Notes: a model not told the origin generated them from the letters alone. A stretch of DNA of 64,000 bases from a virus (IMGVR_UViG_2721755711_000002); one strand, 5' to 3'; counted from the stretch's first letter, positions 48,591 through 64,000 are shown. Made by a program: numbers and translations.

Positions 48591-49226
48591 ATGTCTGTAT
48601 TAATTTCGGGTGTGCTGACGGATGGCGCGGGACTCCCCATGTCCGGATACCATATTATTCTGAAAGCCAGACAGAATACATCCGCAGTGGTCATGAGAAC
48701 GGTGGCTACAGTGATGACAGGTCCGGCAGGAGAATATGCTTTTGAAGCTCAGACCGGAAAATATGACGTTTATCTTCGGTCGTGTATTGAAAGGGAATAC
48801 TGTGTCGGTGATATTTCGGTTTACGACGACTCAAAGCCCGGCACGCTGAACGACTTTTTGACCGCTCTCGACGAAGGCGACCTCAAACCCGACGTGGTGA
48901 AACGCTTTGAGGAAATGGTGGCGCAGGCGCAGCAGGGTGCCGAAACTGCAACAGAAAGCGAACGACAGGCAGGGCAACATGCAGACGCTGCCGCCCGGGC
49001 AAAAGAAGATGTAAAAAAACTGGTGGAAGGTGTTCAGCAGAACGCCGACGCGGTTGCGGAGGGTAAACAACAGGCCGAAACTCTGGTCTCACAGGTTGAG
49101 GATACCGCCGCAGAGGTCAGGCAGGATGCTGAAGCCGCGAAAAAGGCCGCATCTGATGCAGAGCATGTCAGGGAGGATATTGACACTGCGTTATCTGCGA
49201 CACTGAAAACGGCGAATCGCCTGTAA
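48591..49226 (+). CDS. side tail fibre N-terminal domain protein (Stf N-terminal fragment)
   Basis: 211 aa; ...ISGVLTDGAGLPMSGYHIILKAR...GKYDVYL...VYDDSKPGTLNDFLTA...PDVVKRFEEMV... parallels remembered lambda Stf N-terminus; stop codon lies in the junction core. Confidence 0.6.
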   Translation: MSVLISGVLTDGAGLPMSGYHIILKARQNTSAVVMRTVATVMTGPAGEYAFEAQTGKYDVYLRSCIEREYCVGDISVYDDSKPGTLNDFLTALDEGDLKPDVVKRFEEMVAQAQQGAETATESERQAGQHADAAARAKEDVKKLVEGVQQNADAVAEGKQQAETLVSQVEDTAAEVRQDAEAAKKAASDAEHVREDIDTALSATLKTANRL

Positions 49227-49271
49227 ACGATTCGCCGTTTTCAGTGTCGCAGATAACGCAGTATCAATATC
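49176..49271. repeat. near-palindromic junction: 44 bp inverted arms (35 bp perfect, then one mismatch) around an asymmetric 8 bp core CCTGTAAA
   Basis: 49188..49219 is the exact reverse complement of 49228..49259; arms continue as roughly 630 bp diverged inverted homologs (the two Stf N-terminal genes). Confidence 0.9.
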
Positions 49272-49856
49272 TGCTCTGGCCTGCTCTGCACCGGATGCGG
49301 CCTTTTTCGCGGCTTCAGCATCCTGCCTGACCTCCGCGGCGGTATCCTCAACCCGTGAGGCCAGATTTTCGGCCTGTTGTTTACCCTCCGCAACCGCGTC
49401 GGCGTTCTGCTGAACACCTTCCGCCAGTTTTTTTACCTCTTCTTTTGCCCGGGCGGCAGCGTCTGCATGTTGCCCTGCCTGTCGTTCACTTTCTGTTGCA
49501 GTTTCCGCGCTCTGCTGCGCCTGCGCCACCATTTCCTCAAAACGTTTCACCACGTCGGGCTTGAGGTCGCCTTCATCGGGGGCGGTCAGAAAATCATTCA
49601 GTGTGCCGGGCTTTGAGTCGTCGTATACAGCAATATCTCCAACACAGTACTCGTCGCGCCAGCCCTGCTTCAGATATACGCAGTATTTTCCGGTCTGCGC
49701 CTCAAAACAGTACTCGCCACAGTTTCCTGTCACCACGTCGGCAACTGTGCGCATCACCACCTCTGAGGTGTTTACCCGGGATTTCAGAATTATGTGGCAT
49801 CCGGACATGGGGATGCCTGCGCCATCAATCAGCGCACCTGATATCACTACAGACAT
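49191..49856 (-). CDS. side tail fibre N-terminal domain protein (second, diverged Stf N-terminal fragment)
   Basis: 221 aa, similar along its whole length to 48591..49226 (roughly 85 to 90 percent by eye); reads through the junction core and ends 10 codons into the opposite arm. Confidence 0.6.
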   Translation of the reverse strand: MSVVISGALIDGAGIPMSGCHIILKSRVNTSEVVMRTVADVVTGNCGEYCFEAQTGKYCVYLKQGWRDEYCVGDIAVYDDSKPGTLNDFLTAPDEGDLKPDVVKRFEEMVAQAQQSAETATESERQAGQHADAAARAKEEVKKLAEGVQQNADAVAEGKQQAENLASRVEDTAAEVRQDAEAAKKAASGAEQARADIDTALSATLKTANRLQAIRRFQCRR

Positions 49857-49879
49857 AGTTTTTCTCGCGATAAATTAAA

Positions 49880-61340: not shown

Positions 61341-61768
61341 ATTTCAGAGTTGATGTAATACGTACCGGTAATGGTGATGGCTACACCAGGCTCGCCCCCG
61401 GCGAAGGTCATATCCTGCACGTTGGTGATCGCCGTGTTATAGATATCGAAGTCACCGAATACCGTGCTGTCGCTATACACTTTTGCGTCGCCGATCGTGG
61501 CGTTCTTTTCCCATTGAGCCTTGAATTGTTTTCCCAGCGCCTGGCTACGCAGCAGATGAACACGCGCCTGTAAAATCATGTATGGCTGCGGCGACTGCAC
61601 GGCTCCCGTCATGGCGGGTAAAAACTCCGTAATATTGCCCTGAAAGGACAATTCGACGCCTTCTTTTGCCAGAAATGAGGCGGACACATTCAGTTCGGAA
61701 TGAGAGGTGAATTTAACGCTGGCGCGAACCCGGTTAAGGGTGCCAACAGGGATCATTGGATTAGGCAC
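61325..61768 (-). CDS. tail tube-like protein
   Basis: 147 aa following the sheath-like gene. Confidence 0.45.
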   Translation of the reverse strand: MPNPMIPVGTLNRVRASVKFTSHSELNVSASFLAKEGVELSFQGNITEFLPAMTGAVQSPQPYMILQARVHLLRSQALGKQFKAQWEKNATIGDAKVYSDSTVFGDFDIYNTAITNVQDMTFAGGEPGVAITITGTYYINSEMWDLV

Positions 61769-61779
61769 GGTTCAGTCCC

Positions 61780-63117
61780 TCACGAAAGCTGCATTGTCAC
61801 ATTGATGTTAAAAATGATTTCGACAAATCCGCGCATCGGCGTATAGGAGGCCGAAAGGCCCGCATAACGCCCGATACCGTAATCATTCGGATTCGTGTTG
61901 ATATACTGGCGGAAAGGCACTGCATCGACGACAGGCTGGCCGTTGACCAGGCCGTAAGATACGCCCGTATTGAACACCGCCTGTGCGACCTGCTGTAGAC
62001 GGTCGATCCCGTCCTGGTTGTAGTAAAGCGGGTTAATTGGGTTATTGCTGCCGTTGATCACCGTGTTGGCGAGCTGCATATCGACATTAATCTGCACCCA
62101 GTCCACGGAATACCAGTACGTCATATCGTTACCGTCACTGGTAACGCCTTTCACCAGAATCGTGTTGGAGATTCCGCCCTCAGCCCCCGTTTCGACGTAG
62201 TTAATATTCTGCTTCGTCATCGTGGCCAGAATGGAATTTTTGCCCTTGTGGGCGTTTACCGCCTGTAGATAGCGAAATGCCATCGGCGGCACCTTGTTGA
62301 TTTCTGAAGGTGATGCGGAAACATAGTTCCACATTACGGCTGCTGCCGCGTTTGTCGCCGGGTACGTATCATCCGCCGTTGCAATAACCGACTTAATACC
62401 GGCATAAGGCGAAACGTAATTCGTGTCGTCCGGCGTTTTCGTCAGCACGAAGAAATACTGCATCGCTTCGTTGGCGGTGTGGAGTTTTGCCAGACTGATA
62501 AACTCCGCGTCGCCATCCCACGTCTGCGGTACCAGATAAGCGTAAAAACGCTGGAGCGGATCTTCCATATAAGATTTCAGCGCAGCGATTTCCTTACTGA
62601 CTCCGCCTTTCTGTACTCCCAGCTCCAGCAGGTAAATCCCCACTGAATTTCCCTGGGCAAAAAACGTGTTTACTGCCGTCACCAGATTTTCACTGCCAGC
62701 AATAGAAAACTGCCCCAGCGTCACTGGAGAACCGGAAAGCTGAGAACCAGTAATAGTCCAGGTCAGTGTTTTTTCATCCGTGACGGTAGCAGTATATTCG
62801 CCATTCCACGCGTCGGGCGAACACCCGGAAACAACAATTTTCACCTCAGAACTGTTTTCGCGTCGGATGTTGCTCCCTTCCGGAAGCGTCATCGTTACGA
62901 TGACGCTTGCCGCAGATCTTCCTGCGACAGCTGCCGACAAGGCAACAATCGGATTTTTAACCAGTTCGTTAATGTCCTGATTACGGGTGAGTAATACGGG
63001 TTTTCCCGGCTCATGAGTCGTGGAACCAAACGAGAGAACCGCAGACATCTGCTGCAAATTCGAGGGAATGGCCCCGATGGTCTGGGACACATTCACCGTG
63101 ACGATATTAAATCCCAT
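61780..63117 (-). CDS. tail sheath-like protein
   Basis: 445 aa followed by tube-sized and chaperone genes. Confidence 0.45.
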   Translation of the reverse strand: MGFNIVTVNVSQTIGAIPSNLQQMSAVLSFGSTTHEPGKPVLLTRNQDINELVKNPIVALSAAVAGRSAASVIVTMTLPEGSNIRRENSSEVKIVVSGCSPDAWNGEYTATVTDEKTLTWTITGSQLSGSPVTLGQFSIAGSENLVTAVNTFFAQGNSVGIYLLELGVQKGGVSKEIAALKSYMEDPLQRFYAYLVPQTWDGDAEFISLAKLHTANEAMQYFFVLTKTPDDTNYVSPYAGIKSVIATADDTYPATNAAAAVMWNYVSASPSEINKVPPMAFRYLQAVNAHKGKNSILATMTKQNINYVETGAEGGISNTILVKGVTSDGNDMTYWYSVDWVQINVDMQLANTVINGSNNPINPLYYNQDGIDRLQQVAQAVFNTGVSYGLVNGQPVVDAVPFRQYINTNPNDYGIGRYAGLSASYTPMRGFVEIIFNINVTMQLS

Positions 63118-64000
63118 TATTTAACCTCATATTTACAAATAACTTTTTCAATCAACTGCCGGGATATTTCCCGGGCGGTGCTCTGGTAGTAATTCACGTC
63201 AAAATCGACAATCTTTTTCTTCGCCAGAGCGTTGATTTCAACCTGTCCCGACTTTGCGTCCTGAACCACCGGAATATTGGTTACACCAAACTTTTCCTCC
63301 TCCAGCGCCCTGTTCACCACCGAGTCGACAAGATCCAGCGCCATTTTGTTGCTGAATCCGTAAAGCGTCAGGCGAACCGAATCCTGGACTAGCTGGAACC
63401 GCTCACCTCCGAAAACAACGGGAGCCACCTGCAACGGAATACTGTTGCGAACATCCACCGCGATATACGGAGGGCGAAGGTTCTGCGGTACCAGGTAAGA
63501 CGGATACACGGTCGCGGCATCTTTCATTTGCAGCCAGATCGGGATGCTGTTGGAGATGATCTGCTCGTCGCTGATATCCTCCTCGCAGTCGATAATCTGG
63601 GAACGCATGGTTGGTAAAATCGCCATGCCGCGATAATGAAAAATACCCGACTGCTGATAACGGCTCTCCATTCGTGAAAAAGCGAACTGGACGCCTCCGT
63701 ACTCACCGAGATAGATCGCATCGGGATTTTCCACATTAAAATCATCAACCTGCTGAACAGGCGTGAAAATAATGTTGTTCACATCCTTCGAGACAGACTC
63801 GTCCTGAATCGCAATAACCTGACGATGCAGGCTGCCTTTGATTTTCAGACGAGTTGGTGACTCAATATTCAGGCGACACAGTTCATCGCAACTGATGATT
63901 TCCGCATTAACCCAATAGACAAAGCCATCCAGCGGCAGAACCTGCCGGACATAGAGCCTGAACGTGATTTCCTGGTCTGACGAGATGGTTTCAACTGCGG
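63117..64000 (-). CDS. hypothetical phage structural protein, partial (5' end beyond window)
   Basis: The frame of track ORF 63117..63782 stays open upstream to the window end, so the gene is longer than the 221 aa listed. Confidence 0.4.
   Translation of the reverse strand, partial: AVETISSDQEITFRLYVRQVLPLDGFVYWVNAEIISCDELCRLNIESPTRLKIKGSLHRQVIAIQDESVSKDVNNIIFTPVQQVDDFNVENPDAIYLGEYGGVQFAFSRMESRYQQSGIFHYRGMAILPTMRSQIIDCEEDISDEQIISNSIPIWLQMKDAATVYPSYLVPQNLRPPYIAVDVRNSIPLQVAPVVFGGERFQLVQDSVRLTLYGFSNKMALDLVDSVVNRALEEEKFGVTNIPVVQDAKSGQVEINALAKKKIVDFDVNYYQSTAREISRQLIEKVICKYEVK

Follow-up and report, generated by a model that had tools for sequence, protein, structure and literature searches.

The minus-strand genes that run through positions 49191-64000 of the window (the whole 64,000-nucleotide stretch of viral DNA analysed here, IMGVR_UViG_2721755711_000002) form, by ORF calls, a collinear contractile-tail set. 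This set very probably belongs to a third prophage, a lambdoid phage of the full-length Rac type similar to Rac-SA53, as the tail half of its late operon. The tail is contractile (myovirus type) and of the DUF3383-sheath class; it resembles the tails of phages Sf14 and XM1 in gene order and folds. The block is of an already known kind, namely the ordinary tail genes of a well-known type of E. coli prophage, and its only odd feature is that it and the adjacent prophage are fused tail-to-tail within a tail-fibre gene that both share; this junction may be either a mis-assembly or a rare rearrangement.

Identity of the tail block

The block matches positions 33670-48289 of Escherichia phage Rac-SA53 (KU052037) at 95.6% nucleotide identity over 85% of its length; in the Rac-SA53 genome, intR at ttcA is followed in turn by recET, the lysis genes, terL, the head genes and the matching tail genes. 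A prophage of E. coli F2_407_2_2 that resides at the Rac locus, adjoining uspF/ompN, and carries terminase, portal and head genes upstream is 98.3% identical to the block; 37 complete E. coli genomes match it at 94-98% identity, and the E. coli draft contig UCXG01000021.1 is 99.992% identical to positions 51780-64000 of the window over 12,221 nt. In Rac-SA53, F2_407_2_2 and UCXG01000021.1, the gene that the window end truncates is immediately preceded by terS, terL, portal and other head genes. The exact sheath protein is listed in 146 blocks of the contig collection; the identical sheath was read on 24 contigs, and at all four representative places listed, Terminase_2, terL, Phage_portal_3 and further late genes are located directly upstream. 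The same tail module is present in other strains both at the Rac locus and elsewhere, e.g., beside rsmF/pqiAB. No literature was found on phage vB_Apl-pPE4.

The first-pass annotation had hesitated between a third prophage and a tailocin-like element, taking head and packaging genes immediately upstream as the sign of an ordinary prophage. As it stated, the ORF calls include no head genes in this part of the window, and the block runs off the window end: the ORF from 63117 onward is open through base 63998, so the operon extends past the window. Given this open last ORF and the head genes directly upstream in the relatives, the sign of an ordinary prophage is present by proxy. Thus, the prophage half of the earlier proposal is supported, with 95.6-99.99% identity to prophage late regions that have head genes upstream, and the tailocin half is not. 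By extrapolation from the relatives, the head genes of this genome are expected beyond position 64000; the end at which a Rac-type phage has its intR, integrated at ttcA, and its recET/racR-type early region likewise lies past 64 kb.

A tailocin-like element, that is, a domesticated, head-less contractile tail cluster that serves as a bacteriocin, would be in line with the absence of head genes within the window, and the loss of the normal right end would fit a degenerating prophage. Nevertheless, we consider this origin very improbable: a full packaging and head module is found directly upstream in every close relative examined, including the 99.992%-identical contig; the operon is open off the window end; the visible flank is the fibre gene of another prophage, with neither a lysis nor a regulatory cassette; and the relatives occupy at least 2 chromosomal loci, which is the behaviour of a prophage, unlike the fixed locus of a tailocin. 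Hardly credible at all is the idea that the block and the neighbouring prophage (26-49 kb) form one element, with the block as its second tail module; the blocks abut without host genes between them, but they are convergent, each matches a separate, self-sufficient prophage at different loci in other genomes, and the neighbour (phage 2) is itself equipped with sheath, tube, tape-measure and gpD-like genes.

Composition of the tail gene set

All the parts that the first-pass annotation listed in describing the tail as complete-looking (sheath, tube, frameshifted chaperone, SLT-domain tape measure, baseplate, fibre, Tfa) were found (Table 1). Its reservations on protein families were justified as well: Pfam matches with E below 0.001 were obtained for just 6 of the 17 ORFs (SLT, Baseplate_J, Caudo_TAP, phage_tail_N and AntA, plus a weak LprI), the Pfam and NCBIfam scans of the tail ORFs yielded almost no names, and PADLOC matched neither the moron genes nor any of the small tail proteins.

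Table 1. Features of the tail block, in window coordinates
Feature	Position	Strand	Evidence or remark
Truncated second (accessory, Stf-like) fibre gene	49191..49856	-	Pfam phage_tail_N, E 3e-62
Tail fibre assembly protein Tfa, 182 aa	49880..50428	-	Pfam Caudo_TAP, E 2.4e-22; PHROG 136
Tail fibre, 497 aa	50431..51924	-	PHROGs 25419, 454, 6859 'tail fiber protein'
Wedge or fibre-attachment candidate, gpI-like position, 208 aa	51921..52547	-	PHROG 8212, E 3e-119
Baseplate wedge, J/gp47 family, 408 aa	52531..53757	-	Pfam Baseplate_J, E 4.5e-8; PHROG 6, E 1e-38
Moron slot within baseplate genes	53800..55448	both	low GC, about 0.43
Signal-peptide LprI-like protein	53800-54546	-	weak Pfam LprI
AntA/AntB antirepressor-like gene	54879-55448	+	Pfam AntA, E 1e-25
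Candidate small wedge subunit (gp25/W-like), 115 aa	55424..55771	-	PHROG 7986; 115 aa in relatives
Central spike, gpV / phi92 gp138 type, 237 aa	56019..56732	-	PDB 3pqi
Baseplate hub, 335 aa	56732..57739	-	PHROG 196 'baseplate hub', E 6e-43
Small tail protein, 88 aa	57739..58005	-	PHROG 8737; conserved in all relatives
Baseplate or tube-initiator candidate, 222 aa	58002..58670	-	PHROG 7750
Tape-measure candidate, 657 aa, C-terminal lytic transglycosylase domain	58674..60647	-	
Tail assembly chaperone, 205 aa (60711-61328), with -1 frame extension to 60637	60637..61328	-	PHROGs 11810, 14324
Tail tube protein, 147 aa (143 aa from ATG)	61325..61768	-	
Tail sheath protein, DUF3383 class, 445 aa	61780..63117	-	
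Gene preceding sheath gene (rac49 homologue), 3' part, 293/314 codons	63117..64000	-	runs off window end

The earlier sheath-like and tube-like assignments were borne out by homology and fold searches, which identify a DUF3383-class sheath and, encoded next to it, a tube with the Hcp/gp19 fold. In fold comparisons, the two structure models are closest to Sf14 gp39 and gp40, at a sequence identity of only about 8-11%; both models reach only moderate confidence (pLDDT about 60), and the sheath was modelled poorly in its conserved C-terminal half. Sequence searches of the PDB returned nothing significant for the sheath (as a single sequence or as a 33-sequence profile), the tube, the hub or the J protein; the sole PDB sequence match among the proteins searched was that of the spike to phi92 gp138 (E 9.4e-5, residues 69-237), and the spike also matches TIGR01644 phage_P2_V (E 5.5e-4, under the model cut-off). 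The product of the gene that precedes the sheath gene, which is 314 aa long in the relatives, matches PHROG 6359 (E 7e-113, profile positions 90-311 of 312) and, judging by its position, may be a tail-completion, collar or terminator-type protein.

Frame analysis of the chaperone gene detected the slippery heptamer T_TTT_TTT at 60948-60942, in the right frame and at the start of the -1 overlap, in a context that is identical in Rac-SA53 and three E. coli contigs; a -1 frameshift at this site is predicted to produce a 230-aa fusion protein. The 657-aa protein contains a Pfam SLT match at residues 481-578 (E 1.2e-20) and is matched over its full length by PHROG 7694, and it also matches PHROG 2013 'lytic tail protein'; its place after the chaperones suggests that it is the tape measure. 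Several smaller proteins can be given putative roles. The 222-aa protein is placed like gp44 of Sf14, which is the 'bottom of tail tube' protein, and by this analogy could be a baseplate component or tube initiator; the 115-aa protein is, by its position, a candidate gp25/W-like wedge subunit; and the roles of the 88-aa protein and of the 208-aa protein, which has the same length in the relatives, are likewise tentative. The baseplate genes are interrupted by a two-gene moron cassette that had escaped notice in the first pass; in the relatives, the same slot holds other genes, coding for proteins of 129 aa and 158 aa, or for an HSDR_N protein.

From this parts list, the most likely scheme of tail production and function can be proposed. 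Transcription of the genes would start at a late promoter beyond base 64000 and proceed along the minus strand; going by the relatives, this promoter would precede the lysis, terminase, portal and capsid genes. The resulting contractile tail would be of the DUF3383-sheath class, that of Shigella phage Sf14 and XM1: on a baseplate of hub, spike and wedge proteins, the tube would polymerise around the tape measure, aided by the chaperones with and without the -1 frameshift, and the sheath would then assemble around the tube. Adsorption would be mediated by the 497-aa fibre, folded by Tfa, the second, Stf-like fibre being truncated; on contraction, the gp138-like spike would pierce the envelope and peptidoglycan would be cut by the SLT domain that the tape-measure protein carries.

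Curated libraries label most proteins of the block 'hypothetical protein', and these can now be named as components of the contractile tail of a Rac-type prophage. The main gain is annotation clean-up, and the tailocin idea can be abandoned. Most parts of this widespread enterobacterial prophage tail are without Pfam or NCBIfam models, although structures of the class have been solved (Sf14, XM1).

A palindromic junction between two fibre genes

The first ORF of the block, the truncated second fibre gene, marks a palindromic junction with the neighbouring prophage that the first-pass annotation had missed. The segment 48591..49856 is a quasi-palindromic, zero-spacer junction of two convergent 5' fragments of fibre genes, centred at 49223/49224 (AATCGCCTG|TAAACGATT); the left arm belongs to the neighbouring prophage, the right one to the Rac-type prophage. 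The arms extend 634 and 633 nt from the respective ATGs, and the inverted repeat comprises 425 nt at 92% identity; in a folding computation, the hairpin formed by the junction as single-stranded DNA has an energy of -169.7 kcal/mol (z = -32.7). The accessory fibre gene ends after nt 633 of about 1425, so that 211 of the 474 native codons are followed by 10 out-of-context codons from the opposite arm; the DUF4376 gene and the host flank are absent in the window, and the homology of the block to every relative breaks off at 49221. The identical Tfa protein is listed in 162 blocks of the contig collection, and at 10 of the 10 places shown with it, an intact 474-aa accessory fibre and the DUF4376 gene are present. 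With the intact Rac-type right end (Stf-like fibre, downstream gene, attachment site) missing at the junction at 49224, the element may have lost the ability to excise; alternatively, the assembly may be in error at this point.

In 5,426 complete E. coli genomes the junction does not occur, its 32-mer has no match in three contig collections (genome, metagenome and viral), and neither of the two junction-specific truncated fibre proteins is on record. The fibre cassette, for its part, is multi-copy in complete E. coli genomes, with a median of 2 places per genome and a maximum of 14.

Some specific routes to such a junction were considered and rejected. For an invertase-mediated inversion of the Gin/Pin type, there is no crossover site (no match to the 26-bp Gin/Cin/Pin/Hin consensus in the whole window, with up to 3 mismatches allowed) and no invertase gene (no recombinase family among the ORFs around the junction), and the arms are the N-terminal rather than the variable C-terminal parts of the fibres. 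A de Bruijn hairpin artefact on a palindromic k-mer is at odds with the centre, CGCCTGTAAACG, which is not self-complementary. Homologous recombination, single-strand annealing and Mu-mediated rearrangement were dismissed by reasoning only, as none of them yields two convergent 5' fragments.

An assembly artefact, to which we assign slightly less than an even chance, would mean that two true prophages were mis-joined in inverted orientation within the multi-copy fibre repeat and that, in the real genome, the second fibre of 474 aa is intact and the right end normal. The uniqueness of the junction argues for such an error, and so do its perfect symmetry, as when two sequence ends stop at the same point of a repeat, the intact fibre and DUF4376 genes that accompany the identical Tfa, and the several cassette copies per genome; however, there is no N run or other sign of a contig break, the palindrome is imperfect at its centre, where a de Bruijn hairpin would need a perfect one, and the window's other prophage boundary seems to be biological. 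In the alternative that the rearrangement is real, which is possible but doubtful, a cryptic, immobilised, complete-looking Rac-type prophage would be fused with its neighbour inside the homologous accessory fibre genes, with the 3' half of the fibre gene, the DUF4376 gene and one attachment site lost from both elements. Consistent with this alternative, the arms stop at the same nucleotide of both genes (633/634), with a 1-nt overlap; they come from two prophages that lie about 130 kb apart in the same orientation in E. coli PapRG-04-4, and a single inversion with equivalent breakpoints would give exactly the observed junction; the rest of the window looks natural, the end of the Mu-like prophage abutting the interior of phage 2 where Mu homology also stops in other genomes. 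Yet inversion between direct repeats is impossible by homologous recombination, the window is devoid of an invertase crossover site, and the junction and its truncated proteins have no counterpart in the genomes, contig collections and protein records searched; moreover, a zero-spacer quasi-palindrome of ~2 x 630 bp (425 bp at 92%) is expected to be unstable in E. coli, in which long palindromes are attacked by SbcCD.

That the quasi-palindrome at 49224 is real, such that two unrelated prophages with fibre genes in direct orientation ~100-150 kb apart were joined head-on at the same nucleotide, we regard as unlikely. If it is, a homology-registered but non-canonical inversion, e.g., by template switch or fold-back, would be implied, both fibres would be inactivated, both prophages would be minus one attachment site, and a long palindrome would be tolerated in the E. 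coli chromosome. The prophage boundaries of the source genome should be interpreted only with the fibre-to-fibre junction checked against reads.

Comparison with known systems

In Sf14, the genes for gp38-gp53 follow the order collar, sheath, tube, two chaperones, tape measure, tube-bottom protein and small protein, continuing with a Mu gp44-like hub, needle, three wedge proteins and two fibres (PMC11821841). The tail genes of Sf14 (Mooglevirus), Vibrio phage XM1 and related DUF3383-sheath phages are collinear with the window block; however, Sf14 is a large virulent phage, whereas the tail in the window belongs to a temperate lambdoid genome, and the tape-measure candidate in the window bears an SLT domain. 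R-type tailocins (R-pyocin, diffocin) share the architecture of contractile sheath, tube, baseplate and fibre, and fold comparison of the sheath model also picks up the sheaths of R-pyocin (3j9q) and diffocin, with a lower Z. Tailocins are devoid of packaging and head genes, occupy fixed chromosomal loci and possess their own lysis and regulatory genes; unlike them, the close relatives of the window block all have head genes and behave as mobile prophages.

With Rac-SA53, as well as with the full-length Rac-like prophages of type II ETEC and the E. coli W prophage, the block has a common gene order from rac49 to the Stf-like fibre. The resemblance to Rac-SA53, whose toxin, early and head regions correspond to DNA outside the window, extends to the annotation of the gene in the tape-measure position as a lytic transglycosylase and to the presence of an antirepressor in the baseplate slot. 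The differences are confined neither to this slot, where Rac-SA53 has rac61 and rac62 beside ant and the window has the LprI-like protein, nor to the fibre C-terminus and Tfa, which are only partly alike: the 1061-aa tail3 gene of Rac-SA53 contrasts with the second fibre of the window, cut at codon 211. Finally, the block resembles the cryptic Rac prophage of E. coli K-12 in that relatives of the window element adjoin uspF/ompN, with intR of Rac-SA53 located at ttcA, and in that its right end is an Stf-type fibre with a phage_tail_N domain. K-12 Rac retains stfR and tfaR, but no longer has any of the head and tail module to which the genes of the window element belong.

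The interval is a Rac-type prophage late region

Closely spaced ORFs form a single run on the minus strand at 49191-64000. The GC content of this stretch, about 0.43-0.51, is below that of phage 2, the plus-strand, P2-like-tailed prophage on its left. Sequence comparison places this interval in the late region of a Rac-SA53-type prophage: it aligns with positions 33670-48289 of Escherichia phage Rac-SA53 (KU052037) with 95.6% identity over 85% of its length. Rac-SA53 is a 52 kb element with intR at ttcA, recET, immunity and replication genes, Q, lysis and toxin genes, terL and head genes, the last directly preceding exactly the tail genes of the interval. 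Among the Rac-SA53-type features within the window, the only one that fails is an intact right end.

Features of the 49191-64000 interval and the adjoining end of phage 2
Feature	Position	Strand	Remarks
314-aa gene	first in transcription order; 63117 onward, cut by window end	-	open through 63998
Sheath-like protein, 445 aa	second in transcription order	-	PHROG 205, E 1e-53
Tube-like protein, 147 aa	after sheath-like gene	-	no named family
205-aa ORF and overlapping -1 ORF	after tube-like gene	-	heptamer T_TTT_TTT at 60948-60942
657-aa tape-measure candidate	58674-60647	-	SLT domain (Pfam)
Proteins of 222, 88, 335, 237 and 115 aa, in that order	after SLT-domain gene	-	
Two-gene insert	53800-55448, after 115-aa gene	+ (antirepressor-like gene)	antirepressor-like gene; secreted LprI-like protein
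Baseplate_J protein, then 208-aa protein	downstream of two-gene insert	-	Baseplate_J (Pfam)
497-aa fibre, then 182-aa Tfa	downstream of 208-aa gene	-	PHROGs; Caudo_TAP (Pfam) among interval matches
221-aa ORF, last of run	49191-49856	-	phage_tail_N domain
211-aa ORF, end of phage 2	48591-49226	+	phage_tail_N domain

At least 80% of the interval is present in 37 of the 5,426 complete E. coli genomes. For example, the element in E. coli F2_407_2_2 (98.3% identity) adjoins uspF/ompN, that is, the Rac locus, and encodes a terminase, a portal, a DUF2213 protein and further head genes immediately upstream of the 314-aa gene. In the gene-position collection, 146 blocks list the exact 445-aa protein; at all four representative places given (24 contigs read), Terminase_2, terL, Phage_portal_3 and eight more genes lie directly upstream. 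One of these, the E. coli contig UCXG01000021.1, differs from window positions 51780-64000 by one base in 12,221; at 1-9117 of its locus L006 it encodes terS, terL, a portal (Phage_portal_3), a DUF2213-type protein and a 342-aa capsid candidate. The first-pass annotation, undecided between a third prophage and a tailocin-like element, had made the choice depend on head and packaging genes immediately upstream. Such genes are present in every relative; for the source genome itself, where the 314-aa ORF runs off the window, we strongly infer that they lie beyond base 64000. That the interval is instead a tailocin-like element is highly improbable, every feature that could be tested going against it. 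An identical Tfa is found in other strains both at the Rac locus and beside rsmF/pqiAB, and the element is therefore mobile.

Over 75% of the interval, a 47.5 kb record named Actinobacillus phage vB_Apl-pPE4 (PP818812.1) shows 95% identity to the E. coli Rac-type tail region, an unexpected host label for a sequence whose other matches in these searches were E. coli and other enterobacterial records.

A palindromic junction between two fibre genes

The left end of the interval is a fibre-to-fibre junction. The 221-aa ORF and the 211-aa ORF that ends phage 2 both carry phage_tail_N and are both 5' fragments of homologous, Stf-like accessory fibre genes from two different prophages. Intact counterparts are 474 aa long, with a DUF4376 gene next in line. 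The two fragments are convergent, meet at the same nucleotide of their genes and form a zero-spacer quasi-palindrome with arms of 634 and 633 nt from the respective ATGs and its centre at 49223/49224, which reads ...AATCGCCTG/TAAACGATT... (slash, junction), with one shared T at most. The last codons of both cut genes encode ...ANRL, and the intact genes continue with SELADEGE. The left-arm variant CCTGT-CAGA is found in natural genes, and thus no filler bases are required. The arms show 92% complementarity over their inner 425 nt, and the central 298 nt, as single-stranded DNA, fold into a single hairpin (-169.7 kcal/mol, z = -32.7). The homology of every relative to the interval ends at 49221; the junction is found in none of the 5,426 complete E. 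coli genomes, its 32-mer has no match in genome, metagenome or viral contig collections, and no record of either truncated fibre protein was found.

An accessory cassette, consisting of the 474-aa phage_tail_N fibre and the DUF4376 protein (83-92% identical), is located at the right ends of both phage 2, with its P2-like tail, and the Rac-type phage, although these prophages are otherwise unrelated (window 48591-49226 and 49191-49856; relatives L003 6592-8602 and L002 15642-17637). A single E. coli genome can carry it in as many as 14 places.

The junction could quite possibly be a mis-join (mis-assembly) inside this multi-copy fibre repeat; we consider a real event no more likely than that. 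The window has one other prophage boundary, which looks biological and so speaks mildly against a concatenated draft: at 26493-26500, a Mu-like prophage (window 1 to ~26500) meets the interior of phage 2 with its left end, and Mu homology ends there in other genomes too. The arrangement resembles the insertion of a Mu-type phage into another prophage, so that all three phage blocks touch and host genes between them are absent.

A real rearrangement that fused the two prophages at their fibre genes appears rather doubtful. E. coli PapRG-04-4 carries both prophages ~130 kb apart with the fibre genes in the same orientation, and a single inversion would yield such a junction if its breakpoints fell at equivalent nucleotides, but direct repeats are not inverted by homologous recombination. 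A Gin/Pin-type inversion was rejected, with no crossover site found in the window and no invertase gene among the ORFs around the junction, as were single-strand annealing and Mu-mediated events, the products of which differ. If an inversion did occur, the reciprocal junction should consist of two fibre 3' halves that point away from each other, each with a DUF4376 gene behind it, around the centre ...CAGCTCTGA/TCAGAGCTG.... This symmetric palindromic fusion of two prophages is, if real, the only part of the interval that merits more attention.

Tail genes and comparison with known contractile tails

Curated libraries name few of the interval ORFs. Pfam matches are limited to SLT, Baseplate_J, Caudo_TAP, phage_tail_N, AntA and, weakly, LprI, and the NCBIfam scan of the tail ORFs gave none above the cut-offs. 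PHROGs match almost every ORF strongly, mostly through families of unknown function; those with a function are the sheath, hub (PHROG 196), wedge (PHROG 6), fibres and Tfa. The sheath and tube were the two parts tested as deciding whether the tail is contractile. The 445-aa protein has common homologs in Enterobacterales, some with PF11863/DUF3383; its AlphaFold model (33 homologs; mean pLDDT 59.6) is confident only for residues 21-215. Its sequence also matches, directly but weakly, the conserved C-domain of the Shigella phage Sf14 sheath, which is consistent with a sheath. By sequence, the 237-aa protein matches gp138, the membrane-piercing spike of phi92 (E 9.4e-5). Within the 205-aa ORF, G_TTT_TTT_TA places the zero-frame heptamer exactly where the -1 ORF opens, in a context identical in Rac-SA53 and three E. 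coli contigs; a -1 slip there would produce a predicted 230-aa fusion.

The tape-measure candidate occurs in two length variants among near-identical prophages (L004 12472-14511 and L002 26455-28494 in relatives): the 657-aa variant has an SLT match on record, and for the 679-aa variant, a hypothetical protein by annotation, no Pfam match is recorded. The F2_407_2_2 and L004 alignments to the window break off across 60517-58728, in this gene.

The two-gene insert marks a variable cargo site, flanked by the 115-aa wedge-position gene and the baseplate J gene. In the window, this site carries an AntA-like gene and a signal-peptide LprI-like protein, neither matched by PADLOC; in relatives (L005 17670-19469; L012 5471-6631), the slot holds either 129-aa and 158-aa genes or a gene for a 386-aa protein that has HSDR_N (type I restriction N-terminal) domains. 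The spike gene and the 115-aa gene are separated by 200 nt, and in this gap, midway through the tail operon, sits a strong terminator-like hairpin (55950-55983, minus strand; 14-bp stem, 8 G-C pairs, T run).

Sf14 gp38-gp53 share the gene order of the interval (PMC11821841): collar, sheath, tube, two chaperones, tape measure, tube-bottom protein and a small protein, then a Mu gp44-like hub, a needle, three wedge proteins and, last, two fibres. Given this collinearity and the family matches, the parts list of the first-pass annotation (sheath, tube, frameshifted chaperone, SLT tape measure, baseplate, fibre, Tfa) is borne out, and the tail is contractile, of the DUF3383-sheath class. The contractile tails of Sf14 and Vibrio phage XM1 are like that of the interval in gene order and fold, with sequence identity of only ~10%, and by this analogy the tail probably works as theirs do. 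The tail module is a known one and holds nothing new in itself, because a phage genome and many E. coli genomes with near-identical sequences have already been deposited.
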